Shown: positions 4,201 through 24,636 of the stretch, piece by piece | Layout: every line of letters starts with the position of its first letter | How positions within the stretch are numbered: the first letter of the stretch is position 1 | From: an uncultured archaeon | Lineage (GTDB): Archaea > Thermoproteota > Bathyarchaeia > TCS64 | Length of the DNA: 29,892 nt | Direction of reading: 5' to 3' | Assembly (NCBI GenBank): GCA_965368285.1 | Contig: CBDUMJ010000001.1 | Location: 1-29,892 of the forward strand | Position numbers and translations under genes: made by a program | Notes under the pieces: generated by a model | Database searches by the model: none | Told to the model about the DNA's origin: nothing | The model's input: only the letters and a program-made list of their open reading frames with translations

Positions 4201-5610
4201 ATCTTTGAACGTCATGTCATGTACAACACACTACTAGGGTCCACCTATGGGCAGGTCTACCTCTATGGGATCCTGTATCCTTTCGTAGAGAGGGCTACCT
4301 TATATGCAAAAAGTGAGAAGGAAGTAGCGAAGTTAATTGGATTTCTTGAGTACTTGGTGGAGAAAGAACAAAAGGGCCAGCTTCAAGCGGCTTTACTGGC
4401 TAGTTCGTCGTACATACGCGAAAACCTCATCAAGCCGTTCCAAGACAGGTTACCTGAGATTACGAAAAACTTATCTATTCCTCTCCGGGTGTATGCTATC
4501 TCAGACCCAGCGGAATCCTTCGCTGAGTTGTTTGCAACATTTGTAACCAAGCCCACAATCCTGCGGTACAGTTCACCCGAGCTTTACGACTACTTCTTAT
4601 CCTTAATGAGAGCAGTAGCAGTGAAGCCTCTCGCTGAGCTCAAAACCGAGAGAATGTGGAAAGAGTACATAGAGGCGATGAAGAAGCTGAAGCTCAGCCC
4701 CGATCAAATAAGAGAAGCAATAGAGTCTACTTTAACTGTTATGGCATCCACAGAAGCACAAAACTGGGATACAGTTGGCATGATGATTCGTAGGATTATA
4801 GCTGCGTCTAGGAGCGACAAGAGTTTATTGTTGGAGTTAGAGAAAGAAAAAGTGATTGATGTGCAAGGATTTAGTGAACAGCTAAATAAGATGACGGAAT
4901 ACTCAAGGCTAAAGGCATTAGAGGAAGCGCGTAAGAGGCCTGTCACTGCAGCAATTTTAAAGCGCGAAAGAGAGAAATATAAGAGGTTATTTGAGTTCTT
5001 AGCGGACACTAAAGGTAAGGATTTTCACAACGTGGTCGTTGAGTTTGTAGCAAAACTCGCGCCCGAAGAGCAATGTGAACCCATAGTGAACAAAATCTTC
5101 GCTTACTTGGACAGACAAGGATGGAGTAAGGATGCAATGTACGATGTATGGCGTCGGCTGAAAAACATTCGGTCTGGCGGTAAGCCAAGACAAGATGCGT
5201 ATAAATGGTTCGAAGAAGAAATGAAAGTCAAATGGACTTTGAAAAGGCCATGGGAGAAGAAAAAGAAAGTCATCGAAGCTGCTAAGCGTGAAAAGTGGTT
5301 TATCAAGTTCCAAGAAGCGGCAAAGGGTAAAGACTTTCGTAAGTTAGTCGCTAAGTTTGTGACAAAACTGACATCGGAAGAACAGCAGGTGCCGGTTGCG
5401 AACAAAATCTTTGCTTACCTAAATAAGCACGGGTGGAGCGAAGACGCAAAATTTAACGTGTGGCGCCACTTAAGAGGTATTGTGTTAGGTGGTAAATGGA
5501 GAGAAGACGCGTTTGAATGGTTTAAGAAGGAGGTGGGGATTGTCTGGGTGGCGCCAAAACGCCGTCCTGAAGAACAGTACCTCATCAAACTCCTAAAAGG
5601 AGGCGAGTAA
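1288..5610 (+). CDS. Portal protein fused to MuF (SPP1 gp7-like) head morphogenesis domain, zincin metallopeptidase domain(s) and a C-terminal duplicated helical domain
   Basis: Portal-like RRCVDQIATTIAGLPF...GLISPNEARAFLHLPPAQGGD (first ~350 aa); MuF-like YKWVGTGDENMCQDC...CNGKCRCVLIP; HELGH at 4183-4197 with downstream DPAESFAE; one uninterrupted ORF; AGGAG SD. Confidence 0.85.
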   Translation: MDRLKGVTSFDTSIQWSYTTSLQASVLRQIYRDTNTIRRCVDQIATTIAGLPFEVKVSHPFKKEVISAIFEGVGPTGETFKEVLQACVVDMLVINKGVILPVFTLGSQLKSFTARDAGTFAPVFRKDGVLLGYIQEVNGKKFEFKPDEVIVIAGVKRTYTIGSLSIIESLTYEITNLVYSLQRMHKKGRPPIGVFVVQEDVGKEVIEKLQADLTNLVQEQSTKVPILWGAGRGEWIDIVKQLDVQLITSFLDRMDWLVRSAFGFSNPGDSLGRQTARPLLYSTYTPHIVTAIQDQLNHFLRPYGINIRFKIPPAHTISELLLAARSGLISPNEARAFLHLPPAQGGDTLTILQPQGLTPVGGTKPPGGGAKPPTQEPIVVTPARAESEDPFQEIKRAAELEYLESVRNLNLISDPKTADFVSKRMTLSMKLTKKLRKVHEELTEKLCEKFMLVRADVTPTLDPLDKWFYTQIQNALKDVTPDALQTGYYWVDRYWPSYDKDYVDAETVRSLKKINDYMTRQWTSKYQEVKKDAEKRDWDKVRDDLHKLLLSFLAAGAFVGYLTHLPLQAVTRFFTLKGKTIYYKWVGTGDENMCQDCREMHGKVFSQTELEFIGRWPGCGEPYKARGVRCNGKCRCVLIPVDIEETRFEVDWLQKVIPVRGLHLPKSELLAIGALDHVDKKIRDILLKEPRLREPAYFALFDKITTTAAETPYYNPLVNTLYIPAKATHSTVRSAFVDAVVENLMFRNNFLDPYSPITAQLAAIMQKAREDVWETRLWKVFRKVGIELGKEPYIKLEEAWKFGNLAPFEKFTLPLDFPKEAYVDPMLFFKHMFRAVIFTPHREIPGKVAFEDFLASTLWTPSSYKKWVGKSLERLGRPWPAVTSVDAIMKRIPYVDEKIEPYIRALLETYPFLRVPAIWEGLNYIGFSKTTSTFNASYILGRGYEKFMESFNSSIVVTPNLYQILHELGHHIFERHVMYNTLLGSTYGQVYLYGILYPFVERATLYAKSEKEVAKLIGFLEYLVEKEQKGQLQAALLASSSYIRENLIKPFQDRLPEITKNLSIPLRVYAISDPAESFAELFATFVTKPTILRYSSPELYDYFLSLMRAVAVKPLAELKTERMWKEYIEAMKKLKLSPDQIREAIESTLTVMASTEAQNWDTVGMMIRRIIAASRSDKSLLLELEKEKVIDVQGFSEQLNKMTEYSRLKALEEARKRPVTAAILKREREKYKRLFEFLADTKGKDFHNVVVEFVAKLAPEEQCEPIVNKIFAYLDRQGWSKDAMYDVWRRLKNIRSGGKPRQDAYKWFEEEMKVKWTLKRPWEKKKKVIEAAKREKWFIKFQEAAKGKDFRKLVAKFVTKLTSEEQQVPVANKIFAYLNKHGWSEDAKFNVWRHLRGIVLGGKWREDAFEWFKKEVGIVWVAPKRRPEEQYLIKLLKGGE

Positions 5611-6191
5611 TGAGAGGTTTCATTATTGAAGTAAAATCCAACCGAGTAGTTGGAATATGGACTATTACCTTTGGCAGCTTATTCGTGTCGACGCCTGACG
5701 ACACGGTTAAGAGGCGAATAAGCAAGGGCATCCTACGGTCCAAACCTACTATATACCGTGGAAAGTTGTTCACTGAACCTGATTACATTCAGCCAGCAAA
5801 TGCAACGTTAGCTGAACTGACAGAAGCCCTTTCACCTGACTACGTGTGTGTAGCGGAAGAGGACATGGAAGAAGGTGCTATAAAGTTCCCACCACAAGAA
5901 GCTAAACTTACCTCAAACAACCTAGTTGGTCTTGTTACAAAAGATAACAAGGTTGTAGATGTATGGTGCTATGCCGGAGGTGAAATAAAATCACGCGTTC
6001 GTCCTAAGGGTTCAATAGAGACGAATGAAGTTGAAGTGTCGGAAACCAGTGCTGGGAATCTTAGGTGTGTAACAAGAACCGAGCGTGCGAGAAAGGCGGA
6101 ACCTGTAAGTTTGGGTGAAATTTCTTTAGCAACACCATATGCATTTTTACCAATGAGGTACTTTAAATGGGTAGAAAGAAAAAAGTCTTAG
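5610..6191 (+). CDS. Hypothetical protein with internal duplication, coupled to the portal-MuF gene
   Basis: TAATG stop/start overlap; IIEVKSNRVVGIW and LVTKDNKVVDVW repeats. Confidence 0.75.
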   Translation: MRGFIIEVKSNRVVGIWTITFGSLFVSTPDDTVKRRISKGILRSKPTIYRGKLFTEPDYIQPANATLAELTEALSPDYVCVAEEDMEEGAIKFPPQEAKLTSNNLVGLVTKDNKVVDVWCYAGGEIKSRVRPKGSIETNEVEVSETSAGNLRCVTRTERARKAEPVSLGEISLATPYAFLPMRYFKWVERKKS

Positions 6192-6436
6192 AATTAGGTT
6201 TAGCGTCAGCACCACATAAGAAGACGACAAACGATGAAGAAAGTAGTACTGGCAGCACCGTCGATGTGGTCGCTACTAGAATAAAAGAAGCGCTCTTAAA
6301 TAACCCTAATTTGAAACCACAAACGTGGATGGAAGTAGTCAAAGGACTGGAGCTTCTACTCAAGTATAAAGGCGAAGGCGACCCCGACGATGTAATCGAA
6401 CTGTTTGAGGAGAAGTTAAAGGATTTTGAGCCGTGA
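6167..6436 (+). CDS. Putative terminase small subunit
   Basis: Short helical charged ORF directly upstream of, and overlapping (GTGA), terL; call is positional only. Confidence 0.5.
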   Translation: MGRKKKVLELGLASAPHKKTTNDEESSTGSTVDVVATRIKEALLNNPNLKPQTWMEVVKGLELLLKYKGEGDPDDVIELFEEKLKDFEP

Positions 6437-7845: not shown

Positions 7846-7895
7846 TATCATATGGTTATTGCGCCATATTTTAGCAATATGCGCGGGATCCCGCT
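7846..7895 (+). repeat. 50-bp dispersed repeat, copy 1 (copy 2 at 24587-24636)
   Basis: 43/50 identical by hand alignment; both copies are intergenic, between a stop codon and an SD. Confidence 0.85.
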
Positions 7896-7910
7896 AGGAG
7901 GTATAGGAAA

Positions 7911-9047
7911 ATGCGTGGTAAGGTTCTAATCGCAGGTATAGACGGTTTTATAGGATTTGCATTAGCGCAAAATTTAGTAGCACACGGGTTCGAGGTTTAT
8001 GGTATCGACAACCTCTTCAGAAGGAAGGTCGCAACGTCCATAACCCCAATTGCGTCAGTAGAAGACAGGGTTCACACCCTATCAATTGGCTTCGAAGTCT
8101 GTGACGTAACTGATTGGCCCCACTTCTTAGACGTACTCCGCAGAGTCGATCCAGACGCTATTGTGTATTTAGCACATCAACCTAGTGCACCGTACTCTAT
8201 GAAGGACCGAGAGAGCTGCTTTGAAACTACGTTCACCAACACTATTGGACCTTTAAACCTTGTTTGGGCTCTGCGAGAATTAAAGATGGATGTACACGTT
8301 ATAGTAATCGGAACCTTAGGAGAGTACGCGGCGTCTAACATCCCTATTTCAGAAAAGGGACTGGAAGTTAGCTACGGACCGTTCAAGGAAGTCCTACCAT
8401 ACCCCCGTAGAGGAATCTCTTTCTATCACGATACAAAAATCTTAGGCTCTCTTTATCTGGAGTTAGCGTGCAACTGCTGGGGGTTAACAGTGACTGACGT
8501 GATGCAAGGTGTTGTCTTTGGTGTATTAACAGAGGAAATAGACGGGAAAGACGAACTCTTATTCACACGCTTTGACGCAGATGAACTGTTTGGGACTTAT
8601 CTCAATCGTCTATGCGCCGAAGCTGCAACTAAAGATGTCTCGTTAACCGTCTACGGTTCGGGGAATCAAAAGAGAGGCTTCCTGCCTTTAAGAGACTCCA
8701 TTCAGTGCCTTCGTTTGTTATTAGAGAACCCACCCAGACGTGGAGAGTATAGGCTAGTTAATCAGTTAATGGAAGTCTATAGGCTGGAAGACCTGGCTAG
8801 AACTGTTAAAAGAATTTCAATGGAGGAATTTGGTATTTTCACAAAGATGAAGTACTATCCCAATCCAAGAGTTGAAAGAGAAGACATTGACTTATACAAA
8901 GTAGAGAAAGGAATCTTAGACAGCCTTGGTTACAAGCCTTCAATTACTCTTGAAGAAGAAATCAAGAACACTATTGAAATTTGTATAAAATATCGTAAGA
9001 GGATTCCTAGAAAGCTATTGAAACCGCGTACTAGATGGCGCCCTTAA
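7911..9047 (+). CDS. sqdB: UDP-sulfoquinovose synthase (SQD1/SqdB/Agl3, extended SDR family)
   Basis: GIDGFIG Rossmann motif, DNLFRR, SITPIAS, QPSAPYSM, GTLGEY (catalytic Thr), FYHDTK (YxxxK), DVMQGVVFG, DELFGTYLNR, LTVYGSGNQKRG, NPRVE; colinear with SQD1 family signatures along the whole length. Confidence 0.9.
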   Translation: MRGKVLIAGIDGFIGFALAQNLVAHGFEVYGIDNLFRRKVATSITPIASVEDRVHTLSIGFEVCDVTDWPHFLDVLRRVDPDAIVYLAHQPSAPYSMKDRESCFETTFTNTIGPLNLVWALRELKMDVHVIVIGTLGEYAASNIPISEKGLEVSYGPFKEVLPYPRRGISFYHDTKILGSLYLELACNCWGLTVTDVMQGVVFGVLTEEIDGKDELLFTRFDADELFGTYLNRLCAEAATKDVSLTVYGSGNQKRGFLPLRDSIQCLRLLLENPPRRGEYRLVNQLMEVYRLEDLARTVKRISMEEFGIFTKMKYYPNPRVEREDIDLYKVEKGILDSLGYKPSITLEEEIKNTIEICIKYRKRIPRKLLKPRTRWRP

Positions 9048-9980
9048 CCAACGTTTTACACTGAATGAAACAGTACCCTCTTTTAACATACGCTTTACAG
9101 CGGGGGTTATCTCTAACTTTAGTTCACGTTCGAAGGCGCTCATTCGGTACCAAAACCTCTGGAACAAGCTAACTGGTATTTCCTTCTTCTTGACCAACTC
9201 CAAGGTGTCCTTATATAGCTTTTGCAGATTATCCGCTCCTTTACTCCATCTTTCTAAAACGTGCATGAGCATATCAGTTTCCCTCTCTTGCCCAGACTTA
9301 CGTATGTAGGGGATTAATCTCTGCATCTCTTTTACAAGCGACTTCCTACCGCTCTTAGTTGGATAATTCGCACCTAGTTTTGCATATGTGATAAAACTAC
9401 TCGGACCTGGCCTGACAATAAAAGCCTTCTGCCCACTCTCAACCAGTAAATTGTGATATATCTTTTGTAGGTGCTTTCCTGACATCTCTCTGCCAAATAT
9501 CTTGGGCCCAAAGACCACAGGCACTCTTGGAACCTGTGAACTCACCATCCATTTTGGAGATAAAGGTTCAAATGGGATTCTAATCCCCGCCTTATATAAC
9601 CTACGCATCCCACCTTCGGCAAATATGTAGTCCTTCCTAATCGCGAAGTCAGATAAATAGGAAACATCACCCATTGCGTTAGCAAGCTGGTGTATAGCCT
9701 TTGGGTGATGAGATGCCTCTCTAAAGACCTCAATAGTATTTTTGTACTTCTTATGCTTTATTTCGTTCCAGAGGTAATCAGGCAGAGTTTCTTTCAGAAA
9801 GACGTAACCATCACTGGTGAGCATAGACCTTCCCAGCTTATCCACCGTAATGGATCCAAAGTATAAGTTCAGAATATGTTGTAACGTCTTGGGATCTTTG
9901 ATTCTCCACGGCTCAAACTCCGATACATGTATCCAGAATAGTTTACCTTGCCTATTCCTAAGTGGTATAAACTCTAACAC
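9015..9980 (-). CDS. Hypothetical protein with degenerate GNAT-like segment
   Basis: 321-aa ORF; ESGQKAFIV...YAKLGANY aligns with RSGVDEVKV...FSMLGAEF of the neighbour; converges on sqdB with 33-bp overlap. Confidence 0.7.
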   Translation of the reverse strand: MLEFIPLRNRQGKLFWIHVSEFEPWRIKDPKTLQHILNLYFGSITVDKLGRSMLTSDGYVFLKETLPDYLWNEIKHKKYKNTIEVFREASHHPKAIHQLANAMGDVSYLSDFAIRKDYIFAEGGMRRLYKAGIRIPFEPLSPKWMVSSQVPRVPVVFGPKIFGREMSGKHLQKIYHNLLVESGQKAFIVRPGPSSFITYAKLGANYPTKSGRKSLVKEMQRLIPYIRKSGQERETDMLMHVLERWSKGADNLQKLYKDTLELVKKKEIPVSLFQRFWYRMSAFERELKLEITPAVKRMLKEGTVSFSVKRWLRAPSSTRFQ

Positions 9981-9981
9981 C

Positions 9982-10989
9982 TTAACCTCTCACCAAAAGG
10001 TCTAATAGCTTATTTCCCTTCATAGGGATTCTGTACTTGCTGACTCCCTTGCCGAATATTAACTCTAATAGCCTTTTGAAATCCTTATAAGTGCCAGGTG
10101 CCTCTCCAGTAGTGGGGAACCCCGGTCTTCTAGGGAACATTGTATCTCTAAATATTTCCAAAATCCTGGGTAAACTTTGCGTTTGTTCTTTCGATAGCGT
10201 TATCATGATTTTCTTTATTTGCCACTCACGGGCTAATTTCATTCCCTTTAACTTACTAATAGCCAGCGCAGTGAATAACTTCGCCTCTCTTGGATTCTCA
10301 AACTCCGCCCCCAGCATGCTAAATAACACATGATCCGCCTTTCCTCTGCCTGCTACCTTAACCTCATCTACTCCACTCCTCTTAAACACCCGCGCTACTC
10401 TTTTAGCCCAATCCACATCACCACCTCTAACCTTCTCCAACCTCCTGGGATACATCACCAACTTATCTTTTTCTTTCTCAATACTTCCTACAAAACCTAA
10501 TGAAACGTCACCTTTCCATATCTTGGCATCTAAATCTATATTACCTCCTTTCTTTAATTCGACCTTATGTACATCATACGAATCCAGTCCTATCATATTA
10601 GCAGCACACGCCATCGCCCCCGGCGCTTTACAGACCTCACTCAACCTAGCTCCTATCTTTCCTTCATAACTCAACGCACCTATTAAATCTTTCATTCCAA
10701 TCCTGAGAAAGCTTTTCCCACCTTCGTTTATCTTAGCACTTTGTCCTACCAATCTCATAGTATTCATCTCAATCAATCTTTTACCAGCATCACTCAGCTT
10801 TTCCTCTCTTAACCTTTCTAACGGGATTGGGATGTGTCTAAGCCTACCTTTGACTCTTTTAGTAATAAATGTAACAGGACGTCCTTTTTCATCAACCTTG
10901 ATCTCGTATGCTCTTTTTAACTCTTTGAAGAACAAGTATTTAGCTAGAGAATCGAAGAACCTATCTTCGTTTTTTACCTTTACAATCAT
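9982..10989 (-). CDS. Lys/Arg-rich hypothetical protein with FITxxxxGxxxxIPI motif and degenerate GNAT-like segment
   Basis: 335-aa ORF, strongly purine-rich coding strand; motifs read from the translation. Confidence 0.75.
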   Translation of the reverse strand: MIVKVKNEDRFFDSLAKYLFFKELKRAYEIKVDEKGRPVTFITKRVKGRLRHIPIPLERLREEKLSDAGKRLIEMNTMRLVGQSAKINEGGKSFLRIGMKDLIGALSYEGKIGARLSEVCKAPGAMACAANMIGLDSYDVHKVELKKGGNIDLDAKIWKGDVSLGFVGSIEKEKDKLVMYPRRLEKVRGGDVDWAKRVARVFKRSGVDEVKVAGRGKADHVLFSMLGAEFENPREAKLFTALAISKLKGMKLAREWQIKKIMITLSKEQTQSLPRILEIFRDTMFPRRPGFPTTGEAPGTYKDFKRLLELIFGKGVSKYRIPMKGNKLLDLLVRG

Positions 10990-18420: not shown

Positions 18421-18618
18421 ATGGAGGAAGGAGATAAAAAAGTGATTAGGATTGAGTGCGATAATCCTGACTGCGTCATCTGTCAAGAAGGTGGCGTGGT
18501 TGAGGTAGATGAACATCAGCCGTGGACGGCGTGGACGTGCCCGTGTTGTTCAGTAGTGGTTGTGGACCAAAAGGAAGAAGGGTCGTGCAAAGGTGAAATA
18601 TATAAAAACGAGGGGTAA
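18421..18618 (+). CDS. Small Cys-rich (zinc-binding) protein
   Basis: CDNPDCVIC...CPCC. Confidence 0.65.
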   Translation: MEEGDKKVIRIECDNPDCVICQEGGVVEVDEHQPWTAWTCPCCSVVVVDQKEEGSCKGEIYKNEG

Positions 18619-18620
18619 AG

Positions 18621-18821
18621 ATGAGTGAGAAATACTTCATACTTGAGAAAGACGACGTCCAAATCCATTTGTTTGCTGACACGGATTTGGACGATGTGAT
18701 ACTGAACCGGCAGGAGTTGTATAAGGTTTTTGAAGAGGCTGGCTTTAGGGTTAGAGAAGTCCCAGCTACGCCTCCTTATGAAAGCTACGTTGAGACACGA
18801 ACTAATGGAGGTAGTAAGTGA
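18621..18821 (+). CDS. Hypothetical protein
   Basis: Tightly packed ORF, GAGGGG SD. Confidence 0.7.
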   Translation: MSEKYFILEKDDVQIHLFADTDLDDVILNRQELYKVFEEAGFRVREVPATPPYESYVETRTNGGSK

Positions 18822-19048
18822 ACGCTCAAATAAAAAACAAAGTAGTAGAAGAAGTATTGCGGTTCTCCACTGATCTGAATTCAGCTAGGTATAAAGTCAG
18901 AAAGGAGAGCTTCCGGGAAGGGAGAGTGGATTTGGTCTGTCAGTTCTACATGAAGGATCTAATGGACACGTTGGAAACTAAAGAGGATGAGGTGATCAGG
19001 AATTTCATTTATAGGTTGTACCAAATTTTGGATGAAGTTGACACGTGA
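18818..19048 (+). CDS. Hypothetical protein
   Basis: GTGA overlap with the upstream gene, GGAGG SD. Confidence 0.7.
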   Translation: MNAQIKNKVVEEVLRFSTDLNSARYKVRKESFREGRVDLVCQFYMKDLMDTLETKEDEVIRNFIYRLYQILDEVDT

Positions 19049-19093
19049 ACTCAGTGGGGCTATGCTTTTAGGTTTAAAATATGGGGGGCAGGA

Positions 19094-19702
19094 ATGAAAG
19101 AACTCCTTAAGGAAATCCGAAAGTTGAAGTATAACAAGATTGTGTGTGTGGGGTCAAACAAGGTCTCCACACTACACTTGAAGTGCATGGATCATGACTT
19201 TCTGTTTAGGAGCGTGAACGGGAGAAGAAAGATGCCGAAGTCTATTGGAGCAGCACTGGTATATTTAATAAAGAACGGTTACGTTCAACTCAAACCGACA
19301 CACGCGGGGTATGAATTTGCGAGTCGTGCGCTAGGAGCATATGAACTAGAAGAAATGAGGAAACGTGAGATAGCTAAGGAACGGAGGCGTATACGATCGA
19401 TTGTGCTGAGAGGTAAGTTCAAGTTGGATGAGATTGCTAACCGTAAGTATAACGCTACCATTTTTGGTCACTACGACGAAGGTGTAATGGTTACGGCGTT
19501 TGAATACGGGCGTTATGTGAAGTTGCGGAAGGGAGATATAATGACGTTTGTAGGATCAGGGAAGCTCTACAATAAGCTGCTAAACGACATTACTACTGCT
19601 CTCAGGTCACCCAAAGGAAGGTTGTGGTTGGTTAAAGCTGGGGTTGGACATTTAGAACGTTACCTCAGACCAAAGGATACGTTAAAGGGCGGCGGCTCCT
19701 AA
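19094..19702 (+). CDS. Paralog family B member 1 (winged-helix-like N-terminal part)
   Basis: Aligns end to end with 22066-22665 (LKCM..DF, LIK.GY...PT.AG.EFA, GHY, KL.KG, SP.G..WL.K). Confidence 0.85.
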   Translation: MKELLKEIRKLKYNKIVCVGSNKVSTLHLKCMDHDFLFRSVNGRRKMPKSIGAALVYLIKNGYVQLKPTHAGYEFASRALGAYELEEMRKREIAKERRRIRSIVLRGKFKLDEIANRKYNATIFGHYDEGVMVTAFEYGRYVKLRKGDIMTFVGSGKLYNKLLNDITTALRSPKGRLWLVKAGVGHLERYLRPKDTLKGGGS

Positions 19703-19780
19703 AAATAAGCGAGTTGTTCAAGTTAAAGAAGAAAATTGAAATAACTCCATCCTATTATTTCCAGATGTAGGTGGTAGCTG

Positions 19781-20828: not shown

Positions 20829-20994
20829 AAAAGACTTTGTAGAAGTAAAAGCGGTGTATGAGAGGGACACAAAAAGATACCACCGGTTCAATATCGAGTC
20901 TGAAGAGGTAACGGGTGTGGTATATGTAAAAAGGGATGCTGAACTGCCCAGAGAAGTGCGAGTTAAACTTACAGTAGAGGGTGACAAAGAGTAA
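20821..20994 (+). CDS. Small beta-rich phage protein
   Basis: AGGAGGTGA SD before ATG 20821; YERDTKRYHRF...TGVVYV. Confidence 0.7.
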   Translation: MGRKDFVEVKAVYERDTKRYHRFNIESEEVTGVVYVKRDAELPREVRVKLTVEGDKE

Positions 20995-21673
20995 ACACTT
21001 TCTAAGTGTGGAGAGTCTGATCTGGGGGTGCTTCAGTATGTCAAAAGGAATTCGCCGAGGTCTAAAGATGATCGATTATTCATGCGCCGAACTTAGGAAG
21101 GCGGAAGAGAGTCTTTTATCACAGATTCATCCTGCTGTTGTGTTGGAGACAATATTGTTTGTCGCACCTTCGGTTCAGTTTAAAACACGATTGCCTGATG
21201 ATGTGCTAGTTGAGGTGTTTTTTGCTGAGTCTAATAAGGTTAAAGTGAACTTCCCTCGCCTTACAGTCCCAGGTACACCAGTATGTCTAGAAAGACACGA
21301 CATACGATCTGTAACTCTCGTTAAGTTAAAGGACTTGTTGTGTGGTATAACTGCACCTCAACGTCGTTTACTAAAGCTTAATAGCCTGTGGACTGGGTAT
21401 CTAAAGACATGGCGCCAGGCCACACCATATTTGAAACGTGTTAATTTTGAAGTACAACGCGCATACTGGGATTGTCGTAAGAATCCTAGGCTCGCCTCAA
21501 ATCCTCCTTCGTTTGGAATTCAAGGATCACGTATCCTTCTCCCACTTGATGTAGTACAGCAAGCTGAGTTACAGTGGTGTGTGTGCCTTTTCAACGAATG
21601 TTATGGAGGCCACGTCATCCAAAAGTGGGAGGAGTTCTGTGCTCATTATCCTAGTCCATGGTATGAACGTTAA
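20981..21673 (+). CDS. Hypothetical protein (start uncertain)
   Basis: 230-aa ORF on the gene-dense strand. Confidence 0.65.
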   Translation: MTKSKHFLSVESLIWGCFSMSKGIRRGLKMIDYSCAELRKAEESLLSQIHPAVVLETILFVAPSVQFKTRLPDDVLVEVFFAESNKVKVNFPRLTVPGTPVCLERHDIRSVTLVKLKDLLCGITAPQRRLLKLNSLWTGYLKTWRQATPYLKRVNFEVQRAYWDCRKNPRLASNPPSFGIQGSRILLPLDVVQQAELQWCVCLFNECYGGHVIQKWEEFCAHYPSPWYER

Positions 21674-21703
21674 TTTGACTGATGTCATAGGAGGTAGTAC
21701 GGA

Positions 21704-22069
21704 GTGAATGAAGCGATGGTAACCGTGTTTAATGAGGAGGGGCGCCCGTTAATTACCATATACAAGCATTACGGAGGTCACCCGGAAGGTCTGGGTGTGT
21801 TCTTAAGGCGTTTCTTAAAGGATAGGACAGTTATACGTGGTAACCCAACTCCTGAGCTGAGAGATCGCTTGAAGATGTCGAATGGTATGGGTGATCTCGC
21901 GGCTCAGTTAATTTGTGAACTCAAGAAGAAATCGTTCGTAGGTGACGTCTATATAAGTCCTATAGGGATTAATATGGGAGTGAAATACACTTACAATATT
22001 AGGTTTGGTGGTTATGGGCATCCTGTAACCTTAGAGGTACGTAAAACACAATATGGAGAGGAATCATGA
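21704..22069 (+). CDS. Conserved hypothetical phage protein
   Basis: IYKHYGGHPEGLG...FL...NGMGDLAAQL resembles a pattern I recall from uncharacterised phage proteins (YxHxDGYP...NGMGCLAAQL). Confidence 0.7.
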   Translation: MNEAMVTVFNEEGRPLITIYKHYGGHPEGLGVFLRRFLKDRTVIRGNPTPELRDRLKMSNGMGDLAAQLICELKKKSFVGDVYISPIGINMGVKYTYNIRFGGYGHPVTLEVRKTQYGEES

Positions 22070-22665
22070 AAGAAAAATTGAAGAATGTATACCTGCGTGT
22101 AGAAGATGGAACATGGGTTTCTCCCACAGTATTGAAGTGTATGCACTCCGACTTTGTACGGAAGAGTGTTGATCGAACAGGGATGCCTTCATCTATAAGT
22201 AGTGCTTTGGCGTTTCTAATAAAGAAGGGATACATTGAAATACACCCGACGCGAGCCGGGCGTGAGTTTGCAGACAGGTTCATGAGGCTGTACGAGCAGA
22301 GAGAAAGGAAGCTGGTTGACGCGACTAAAGTGCGGAGACAAATGCGTCATACCGCTCTAAAAGGGACGTTTTGTTTAGATGAAATCATTCCTAGTGAAGC
22401 CCCTAGTGATCCAAATGTAACTATTTGTGGGCATTATGAAGATGATGTCAGAGTTACAGTGACTTCGATTTATAAATACATCAAACTCAAGAAAGGACAC
22501 ATAGTGTCGTATGTAGACAAGGGAAAGCTTTATGATAAGATAATAACTGACGTCTCTACTGTACTGATAGAGTCACCTGAAGGGAAGATGTGGTTACTTA
22601 AAGTTGGTGTAAGCCAACTGAAGTGGTTCGTGAATTGGTATAGATCACGTAAGACTGTTAGATAA
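22066..22665 (+). CDS. Paralog family B member 2
   Basis: Aligns with 19094-19702; ATGA overlap. Confidence 0.85.
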   Translation: MKEKLKNVYLRVEDGTWVSPTVLKCMHSDFVRKSVDRTGMPSSISSALAFLIKKGYIEIHPTRAGREFADRFMRLYEQRERKLVDATKVRRQMRHTALKGTFCLDEIIPSEAPSDPNVTICGHYEDDVRVTVTSIYKYIKLKKGHIVSYVDKGKLYDKIITDVSTVLIESPEGKMWLLKVGVSQLKWFVNWYRSRKTVR

Positions 22666-22675
22666 AGGAGATAAG

Positions 22676-22888
22676 ATGAAAGATGGTAAAGAACATTTGA
22701 CCATAGAAGGCTATGTAATAACAAGAAGACATGGAAACTACATCGTTGCAAAGGAAGTCCTTGAAGATTTAAAGGTGAGTTTGAAAGGGATGACAGTGTC
22801 GCAAAAAGGTCGGCCGGTTGGTAGAATTGAAGAAGTTGAGGTAGATGATAAAGGGTTACGAGTTAAAATTAAGATGTTTAAAAAGTGA
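22676..22888 (+). CDS. Small protein resembling part of the HK97 prohead protease fold
   Basis: LTIEGYV...RPVGRIEEVEVDDKGLRVKI; AAGGAG SD; catalytic His not visible. Confidence 0.6.
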   Translation: MKDGKEHLTIEGYVITRRHGNYIVAKEVLEDLKVSLKGMTVSQKGRPVGRIEEVEVDDKGLRVKIKMFKK

Positions 22889-22915
22889 AGTAAGCCTTCT
22901 TGGAAGTCTGGTTTG

Positions 22916-23245
22916 ATGCGAGTGTTAACTTCTATATTGTCACGTGCTGTGCCGGATGTGCGAGTTGAATCAGTGGAAATAGTTGAATCGGCGATCAGGG
23001 CGTGGTGCTGGATCCAGATCAGACCAAATCATGAGAAGTACTGGGAGCGGTTCGTGGAACTTTACCCGCACTGGAAGCGAGTGGGCTTTAAGTATGGTCA
23101 TTTGGATCTCGGGGCTACTCCTACATTTCCTTCACGGTTTTTGTTAATGGGTTGGTTATCAGAGGTGTTAGGTTTAACACAAGGAGAGAAAAAGCTTTTA
23201 TACCTCAATCTAGGACACAATTGTGATATGTTTACTAACCGTTAA
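22916..23245 (+). CDS. Paralog family A member (isolated copy)
   Basis: LSRAVPDVRVESVEIV...PNHEKYWERF...WLSEVLGLTQGEKKLL. Confidence 0.85.
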   Translation: MRVLTSILSRAVPDVRVESVEIVESAIRAWCWIQIRPNHEKYWERFVELYPHWKRVGFKYGHLDLGATPTFPSRFLLMGWLSEVLGLTQGEKKLLYLNLGHNCDMFTNR

Positions 23246-24586: not shown

Positions 24587-24636
24587 TATCATATGCTCAT
24601 TGCGCCATATCTTAGCGATAAGCGCGGGTTCCTGCT
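24587..24636 (+). repeat. 50-bp dispersed repeat, copy 2
   Basis: 43/50 identical to 7846-7895. Confidence 0.85.

Follow-up and report, generated by a model that had tools for sequence, protein, structure and literature searches.

The 29,892-nucleotide stretch of DNA analyzed here, called the window below, is the entire contig C1 of a 2.5-Mb, 540-contig metagenome-assembled genome (MAG; GCA_965368285.1) filed under the archaeal lineage Bathyarchaeia, and it belongs to a tailed virus of ~152 kb found in deep-sea vent sediments. At positions 7911–9047 it encodes a putative UDP-sulfoquinovose synthase of the SQD1/SqdB/Agl3 family of extended short-chain dehydrogenases/reductases. With a probability of about one half, and by analogy with characterized enzymes, we read this protein as an active NAD+-dependent UDP-sulfoquinovose synthase that would feed the virus's own glycosyltransferases (GTs). 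Such virus-directed glycosylation gains support because four GTs are encoded elsewhere in the viral genome, the orthologue in related viruses lies next to a GT-B gene, and a GmaR/SunS-type GT is conserved in the head module; virion proteins would be the likeliest target.

By comparison with SQD1 and Agl3, bound NAD+ would oxidize C4 of UDP-glucose, water would be eliminated across C5–C6, sulfite would be added at the enone's C6, and reduction of the 4-keto group would finally yield UDP-sulfoquinovose. The host would supply UDP-glucose and sulfite, and the viral GTs would use UDP-sulfoquinovose as donor to form a sulfonated glycoconjugate, the likeliest acceptors being virion or other viral proteins. 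The gene may be expressed late.

Family, fold and catalytic residues

The open reading frame (ORF) starts with ATG, ends with an in-frame stop and is preceded, 8 nt 5′ of the ATG, by the Shine-Dalgarno sequence AGGAGGT (7896–7902). Its 378-aa product matched Pfam Epimerase/GDP_Man_Dehyd and, end to end, the NCBIfam model for UDP-sulfoquinovose synthase (NF041015; E 5.6e-117, model positions 2–384), the runner-up NCBIfam family reaching only 50 bits. The GalE model TIGR01179 scored 28 bits (cut-off 262), over the N-terminal Rossmann part only, and the dehydratase model TIGR01181, which tests for the RmlB/GMD class, scored 50 bits against a cut-off of 365. A search of PDB sequences returned Arabidopsis SQD1 (1i24/1qrr; E 7e-77, residues 4–377). 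An AlphaFold model built on 51 homologues (pLDDT 92) had 1qrr/1i24 as its best Foldseek matches (TM 0.95/0.92, rmsd 1.3–1.4 Å, 36% identity in the alignment), followed after SQD1 by a GalE with TM 0.70, and the predicted structure has the SQD1 fold including the C-terminal substrate domain. Because the NF041015, SQD1 crystal-sequence and fold matches far outrank GalE, the predicted protein can safely be assigned to the SQD1/SqdB/Agl3 family and a GalE epimerase excluded. An earlier sequence-only reading of the window had described a full-length SQD1-family protein, which these matches bear out; it had proposed to give up that description if the best hits were generic UDP-glucose 4-epimerases, and they are UDP-sulfoquinovose synthases.

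Residues were read off a 96-sequence family alignment, together with Agl3 mutagenesis (PMC4388408) and a signature table (PMC8987622). The NAD motif GxxGxxG is present (G9/G12/G15), as are the catalytic-core residues T135, E138, Y139, S170, Y172, H173, T175 and K176. The Thr, YxxxK and adjacent His previously noticed as intact were all found, as T135 (GTLGEY) and Y172-H173-x-x-K176 (SFYHDTK). The signature [ST]MG...YHxxK marks the SQD1 type, and 4,6-dehydratases (RmlB, GMD) carry [ST]DE or [ST]SE (PMC8987622); the motif here, T135-L136-G137-E-Y, in which Met is replaced by Leu as in 8 of the 96 members, is an SQD1-type signature and not the dehydratase [ST]DE. Ten residues of Agl3 were changed in the mutagenesis study, in which Ala at H95, R101, M145, E147, Y148, S180, Y182, T185 or K186 inactivated or impaired the enzyme (PMC4388408). 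The viral protein is identical to Agl3 at seven of the ten (the equivalents of T144, E147, Y148, S180, Y182, T185 and K186); its counterpart of M145 is the conservative Leu, that of R101 is Pro, as in 92/96 family members, and that of H95 is Tyr. Relative to SQD1/SqdB, five residues are deleted after the RR motif. Judged by its intact catalytic core, the enzyme is apparently catalytically competent.

Glycosyltransferases and a glycosylation cluster in related viruses

The sequence-only reading saw no GT in the window, and at the Pfam level there was none among the 18 largest ORFs; elsewhere on the genome, where it had suggested looking, there were four, in the 95%-identical virus genome G001 and its parent contig, of which L096 is a locus (Table 1). 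The 271-aa GT-A and the 630-aa GT2 protein also occurred on MAG contigs C193 and C40. The best solved relatives of the GT2 domain were GmaR, which O-glycosylates flagellin in Listeria (E 4.5e-17), and SunS, a peptide glycosyltransferase; these matches would point to protein acceptors for this enzyme of the head module. In the same PDB sequence search, the GT-B gene had no match and the GT32-like gene only non-significant matches. Pathway-gene searches covered 131 kb of the viral genome, 139.6–151.8 kb (about 12 kb) lying outside them; they revealed no SqdX/SQD2-type partner from GT4 (PF00534), and the GT-B gene of the Glyco_trans_1_2 type is present. SQD2 and SqdX, which are established sulfoquinovosyl transferases, belong to the GT-B enzymes, and we infer that the viral GT-B is the best candidate for a sulfoquinovosyl transferase.

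Homologues of the large terminase subunit (TerL) with 58–60% identity were found on contigs of 60–83 kb. In two of these relatives (loci L224 and L225), the SQD1 orthologue occupies a site upstream of the portal gene, and not one behind the terminase, within one co-directional glycosylation cluster. The order in L224 is (QueC, KH, ligase), GT-A, GT32, methyltransferase, ATP-grasp, Glyco_trans_1_2 (GT-B), SQD1-like and a response-regulator-domain gene; this backbone recurs in L225 (ATP-grasp outside the comparison), together with two S-adenosylmethionine (AdoMet)-decarboxylase genes. The SQD1-like start is separated from the GT-B end by a 2-nt gap in L224 and overlaps it by 4 nt in L225. The GT-A, GT32, ATP-grasp and GT-B products of the cluster are 37–45% identical to those of the scattered genes of this virus, and in the relatives the 630-aa GT2 gene directly follows the head-completion gene. 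Because of its AdoMet-decarboxylase-domain and ATP-grasp genes, the cluster may build more than a plain glycan; the ATP-grasp gene (RimK/MptN-like) is carried both by this virus and by L224. The two AdoMet-decarboxylase-domain genes of L225 are adjacent (L225:3582–4293).

By these gene orders, the link of the SQD1 gene to viral GTs is ancestral in the group and its position at the terminase is lineage-specific. The sequence-only reading had derived sulfoquinovosylation from the place of the gene in a morphogenesis operon. The idea of virus-directed glycosylation is strengthened by the viral GTs and the relatives' cluster, and the operon position has to be dropped as its basis: the terminase neighborhood cannot carry a functional inference because the relatives' orthologue sits elsewhere.

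Phylogeny and other viral copies

The relatives' SQD1-like proteins (L224:7833–8990, L225:7909–8985) are full length, 34% and 25–26% identical to the protein from the window, and share with it a one-residue insertion (SMEEFG) and the loss of HYYNP. In the tree, this protein, the two orthologues and P0003/P0004 fell in a six-row clade with a support (SH-aLRT) of 91; support for this protein with the two relatives alone was 76, on long branches that make the placement tentative. P0003/P0004 come from a phage-like contig with amidase and holin genes. The comparison with cellular homologues that had been proposed earlier yielded a phage-context clade, the MAG's homologues (43% and 38% identity) lying elsewhere in the tree. 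Recent capture from the binned organism was rejected because of these low identities (43% and 38%) and the different clade. The organism has two such homologues (C17:3312–4454, − strand / C321:1557–2741, + strand), one being a standard 384/388-aa gene beside a GalE-like gene and the other encoding 525 aa with a Cys-rich N-terminal and an acidic C-terminal extension.

The survey of viral databases likewise proposed gave ~50 IMG/VR contigs with near-full-length homologues at 34–44% identity. Among cultured phages and archaeal viruses, the only match was 29% identical and half-length, a dehydratase of SFV1. A putative viral UDP-sulfoquinovose synthase was reported in 2020 from a Mu-like virus of the Cariaco Basin (Mara et al.; PMC7785012). 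Viral SQD1 homologues have accordingly been published already, and this gene is not the first of its sort; the Bathyarchaeia virus paper PMC10848311 mentions neither sulfoquinovose, an epimerase nor Guaymas. Another homologue, 46% identical, is located on L001, a phage-like 26.7-kb Logan contig (SRR27456515) with a GH108 lysozyme and two TnpB genes, amid about nine co-directional sugar genes that include three GTs, two epimerases, a methyltransferase and a GDSL esterase.

Assembly, variation and selection

The same order of TerL, SQD1 and downstream genes was recovered in eight loci from JGI, ENA and Logan assemblies, some of which duplicate the same samples. Logan contigs from four runs span both gene junctions, with no joints or loose ends there, so that the possibility of a chimeric host insert, raised with the sequence-only reading, fails on independent assemblies bridging both junctions. 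Across the eight variant loci, the ratio of nonsynonymous to synonymous substitution rates (dN/dS) was 0.02–0.07, with dS up to 0.24 and the frame intact in every copy; selection on the gene in the virus is thus strongly purifying. Among public DNA runs, 23 are listed as containing the stretch, of which 21 bear the label hydrothermal vent metagenome, and no RNA dataset was among the listed sequencing runs carrying it.

The virus and its host

The window aligned at 85–97% identity to 49.7–79.0 kb of IMG/VR UViG_3300025163_000238 (131 kb), a record that covers the opening 131 kb of a 151,812-bp contig. The same sequence was assembled from other starting points in contigs of 151,826, 152,538 and 152,866 bp. 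Because contigs of equal length differ in start point between assemblies, we infer a circular or permuted genome of ~152 kb. The same contigs of 151.8–152.9 kb with differing start points led us to reject an integrated provirus, as IMG/VR labels it. Nine more MAG contigs (C2, C10, C18, C25, C34, C40, C193, C477 and C538) belong to the same virus; they are 90–99% identical to G001, several are tetranucleotide outliers of the MAG, and ~120 kb of the bin is viral.

The archaeal host assignment comes from binning alone. Near-identical copies are named Candidatus Bathyarchaeota in NCBI, and another viral gene is recorded as Aenigmarchaeota. Among the products of the virus is a 121-aa Peptidase_M15_3 endolysin (L096:10724–11089 = G001 128494–128858; phrog_894, E 7e-31), 45% identical to Rheinheimera phage endolysins, with weaker matches to Vibrio and Escherichia phages and 686 matching phage records in all. 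Together with a sigma-70 region 4 protein and a Ku of bacterial type, this M15 peptidoglycan endolysin makes a bacterial host a good deal likelier than an archaeal one, and the virus is probably a phage mis-binned in archaeal MAGs. The MAG's only CRISPR array (C86:6728–7050) has 5 spacers, none matching the virus, and the 880 spacers of 80 metagenome arrays that share its repeat matched the virus by no more than chance stretches of 15–16 nt. TerL peptide patterns found nothing in one genome per GTDB species, and TerL was not found in 400 sampled genomes of the MAG's phylum. The array on C86 is at a contig end, and at least 120 metagenome contigs, of widely differing habitats, carry its repeat, GTTTCAATCCACGCCCCCGCACGGGGGGCGAC.

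Neighborhood of the gene and other viral genes

The SQD1 gene closes a co-directional block that is opened by the portal-MuF gene and continues through two small ORFs and TerL (Table 1); the gene directly upstream is indeed a large terminase, as first noticed. The 321-aa ORF convergent on it had no homologue in the relatives' loci, and ESM Atlas look-ups of this ORF and the 335-aa ORF gave nothing informative.

Table 1. Features of the window and glycosyltransferase genes outside it. Positions without a prefix refer to the window; G001 is the 95%-identical virus genome and L096 a locus of its parent contig.
Feature	Position	Strand	Remarks
Portal-MuF fusion, 1440 aa	1288..5610	+	phrog_12, phrog_2662 portal; Pfam Phage_portal, Phage_Mu_F
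193-aa ORF	5610..6191	+	No family match; weak similarity to same-position gene in relatives
89-aa ORF between 193-aa ORF and TerL	6167..6436	+	No family match; gene called in all related loci
Large terminase subunit (TerL), 467 aa	6433..7836	+	phrog_38, E 8e-63; 58–60% identity to related vent viruses
Conserved 50-nt intergenic element (7846–7895), then Shine-Dalgarno sequence (7896–7902)	7846..7902	+	Near-invariant among variants
Putative UDP-sulfoquinovose synthase, SQD1/SqdB/Agl3-family extended short-chain dehydrogenase/reductase, 378 aa	7911..9047	+	Family, fold, residues, dN/dS
321-aa ORF, convergent on SQD1 gene	9015..9980	−	33-nt 3′ overlap; no family match
335-aa ORF	9982..10989	−	No family match
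GT-A, 271 aa	G001 84237–85052	opposite strand	Right after head-tail connector
630-aa protein with GT2 domain	G001 94224–96116		
GT32-like gene	L096:3874–4773		Near ligase, QueC, PyrF, phosphoribosyltransferase
Glyco_trans_1_2 GT-B gene	L096:4888–5757		Near ligase, QueC, PyrF, phosphoribosyltransferase

The 50-nt element differs among variants at one base, near the TerL stop, though the variants differ by 15–24% at the synonymous sites of the gene. It contains the palindrome GCGGGATCCCGC (7883–7894), and a second copy (about 43/50) lies at 24587–24636 of the window. Its predicted fold was no better than shuffles (z −1.2), nor were promoter and terminator scans around the SQD1 gene. The window has no Rfam family and no tRNA, and the related genome no tRNA.

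Several other genes of the virus are of note in their own right. The virus has the Ku homologue (G001 22303–22995; Ku_bact, E 2e-34) and an ATP-dependent DNA ligase (L096:2760–3761), as in the end-joining systems of some phages; about 43 kb of the circle lies between them. The 7-deazaguanine genes comprise a QueD (PTPS) with a LAGLIDADG endonuclease domain, either as a fusion or as an interruption (G001 18452–19771), and QueC (L096:1–455), along with two radical-SAM genes (G001 10046–10681 and 20831–21502). A 192-aa SIS-domain protein (G001 21517–22092) reached the NCBIfam cut-off for 6-phospho-3-hexuloisomerase (163.8 vs. 160 bits), an unusual auxiliary gene for a virus.

Comparison with known systems

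Arabidopsis SQD1 and bacterial SqdB, which serve sulfolipid synthesis, resemble the viral protein in full-length homology, fold and the motifs GxxGxxG, T-x-G-E-Y and S-x-Y-H-x-x-K; they differ from it in that this gene is viral and has the five-residue deletion, 21 changed conserved positions and no GT4 partner in the searched 131 kb. Agl3 of Sulfolobus acidocaldarius, which acts in N-glycan synthesis, is comparable through about 45% identity of the viral protein to the Sulfolobales orthologue P0089 and the seven shared mutated residues, whereas the viral protein has Tyr at the His95 equivalent, scores 391 bits with NF041015 against 684 for P0089 and probably works in a bacterial host. The Agl3 comparison of the sequence-only reading holds for the family, and its archaeal N-glycan context is weakened, the virus looking like a bacteriophage; an N-glycan route through AglB is doubtful because the virus probably infects a bacterium.

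The Cariaco Basin Mu-like virus and the ~50 IMG/VR contigs share with this virus an SQD1-family gene and an anoxic, sulfidic marine setting, yet this virus, at ~152 kb, is much larger and different in kind, and its gene lies in a separate clade. In mycobacteriophages, Freeman and colleagues reportedly described in 2023 the glycosylation of virions, with phage GTs in the structural module. The present virus is similar in having GTs inside the head/tail module, one of a protein-glycosylating type; unlike those systems, it has no Ser/Thr-rich tags on its virion proteins and encodes a synthase for a sulfonated-sugar nucleotide.

Weighing of the alternatives

Several observations weigh against an active synthase dedicated to viral glycosylation. 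With 391 bits, the protein did not reach the equivalog trusted cut-off of NF041015 (575 bits), which is Sulfolobales-centered (P0089 scores 684), and it had the lowest score among nine proteins, the comparators ranging from 421 to 684 bits; a cyanobacterial-type homologue (540) and the MAG's own homologue (567) also fell below the cut-off. The Agl3 H95 equivalent, His in 86/96 members, is Tyr here, and Agl3 His95Ala is inactive (PMC4388408). Altogether, 21 positions with at least 85% family conservation are altered, among them Y13F, the loop GEYGTP, which became GEYAAS, and the His of HYYNP, replaced by Ile. The proteins of both relatives lack the catalytic Thr, Tyr and His, and one (L225) also the Lys, so that of the three viruses examined only this one keeps the catalytic residues. 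Because these orthologues lack catalytic residues, the lineage tolerates loss of this chemistry; by their sequences, they may be pseudoenzyme partners of the GT-B. On the side of substrate and target, the virion proteins showed no Ser/Thr-rich tags (maximum 45% S+T per 20-aa window, no runs), and neither a PAPS reductase for sulfite supply nor an NTP-transferase for UDP-glucose supply was found among the viral genes in the 131 kb.

The gene could be a classical auxiliary metabolic gene, in which case host machinery would consume UDP-sulfoquinovose for sulfoquinovosyl diacylglycerol or for envelope or S-layer glycans, keeping a host pathway running during infection or altering the cell surface, and the viral GTs would serve other purposes. 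This is the interpretation published for the Cariaco Basin virus (PMC7785012); it agrees with the isolated position of the gene in this virus, far from the viral transferases, and with the two SQD1 homologues of the MAG, which indicate that sulfoquinovose use exists in the community. It is unlikely, if the least so of the alternatives, given that the relatives' orthologue abuts or overlaps a viral GT-B gene within a viral glycosylation cluster, that the gene's clade is not a host-like one, its members of known context (P0003 and the two relatives) being on phage-like contigs, and that no host acceptor pathway can be named for a host assigned by binning only. An SQD1-fold enzyme with altered chemistry, which would still perform the oxidation and 5,6-elimination but then release UDP-glucose-5,6-ene, add a nucleophile other than sulfite or take another UDP-sugar, would account for the partial clustering of the 21 changes in the post-GEY loop and the HYYNP motif, for the low score and for the long branch, and Agl3 itself releases the 5,6-ene without sulfite (PMC4388408). 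Yet strong purifying selection preserves the whole catalytic core, including the SQD1-typical His after the Tyr, the model fits SQD1 with an rmsd of 1.3–1.4 Å, and cyanobacterial-type homologues also score below the cut-off, and we regard such a change of chemistry as improbable.

Two further explanations have much lower probabilities. DNA was among the targets named by the sequence-only reading, and a sulfo-sugar or other sugar placed on viral DNA could, as a hypermodification, block host nucleases. The relatives' cluster begins beside QueC and a DNA ligase, and two of the transferases here have the ligase, QueC, PyrF and phosphoribosyltransferase genes as neighbors; however, searches of 131 kb (about 12 kb unseen) turned up neither a thymidylate-synthase-like hydroxymethylase nor a TGT/DpdA, and the best-characterized transferase relative is a protein glycosyltransferase, which leaves DNA unsupported as a target and this explanation very improbable. 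Lower still is the probability that the protein is non-catalytic, a nucleotide-sugar-binding or scaffolding partner of a GT. The retention of full-length orthologues without catalytic residues in the relatives would fit such a role, but the copy in the window keeps all catalytic residues and the NAD motif, with a dN/dS of about 0.05.

An active synthase feeding the viral GTs is the reading we favor. A more specific proposal is tentative, and rather doubtful as a whole: the vent phage lineage may sulfoquinovosylate its own, probably virion, proteins by means of a phage SQD1 clade, a GmaR/SunS-type GT and the GT-B enzyme, with a dead synthase as the partner of the GT-B in sister viruses.

Implications

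This case adds a conserved glycosylation module, orthologues both live and dead, and a phage that has probably been mis-binned in archaeal MAGs. A ~152-kb phage scattered over ten contigs of one MAG affects the metabolic reading of that MAG and of those Bathyarchaeota and Aenigmarchaeota MAGs in which this virus is also present. The live and dead orthologues constitute a natural experiment on the role of the protein beside its transferase. If the more specific proposal is true, this would be the first viral sulfo-sugar protein glycosylation system, with a pseudoenzyme derivative. Sulfoquinovose, a major organosulfur compound, has been known chiefly from the membranes of photosynthetic organisms and from Sulfolobus N-glycans. 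A synthase gene conserved under selection in a deep-sea vent phage, and linked by gene order to phage GTs, would carry sulfo-sugar biology over to virus particles or the surfaces of infected cells in dark, sulfidic sediments.

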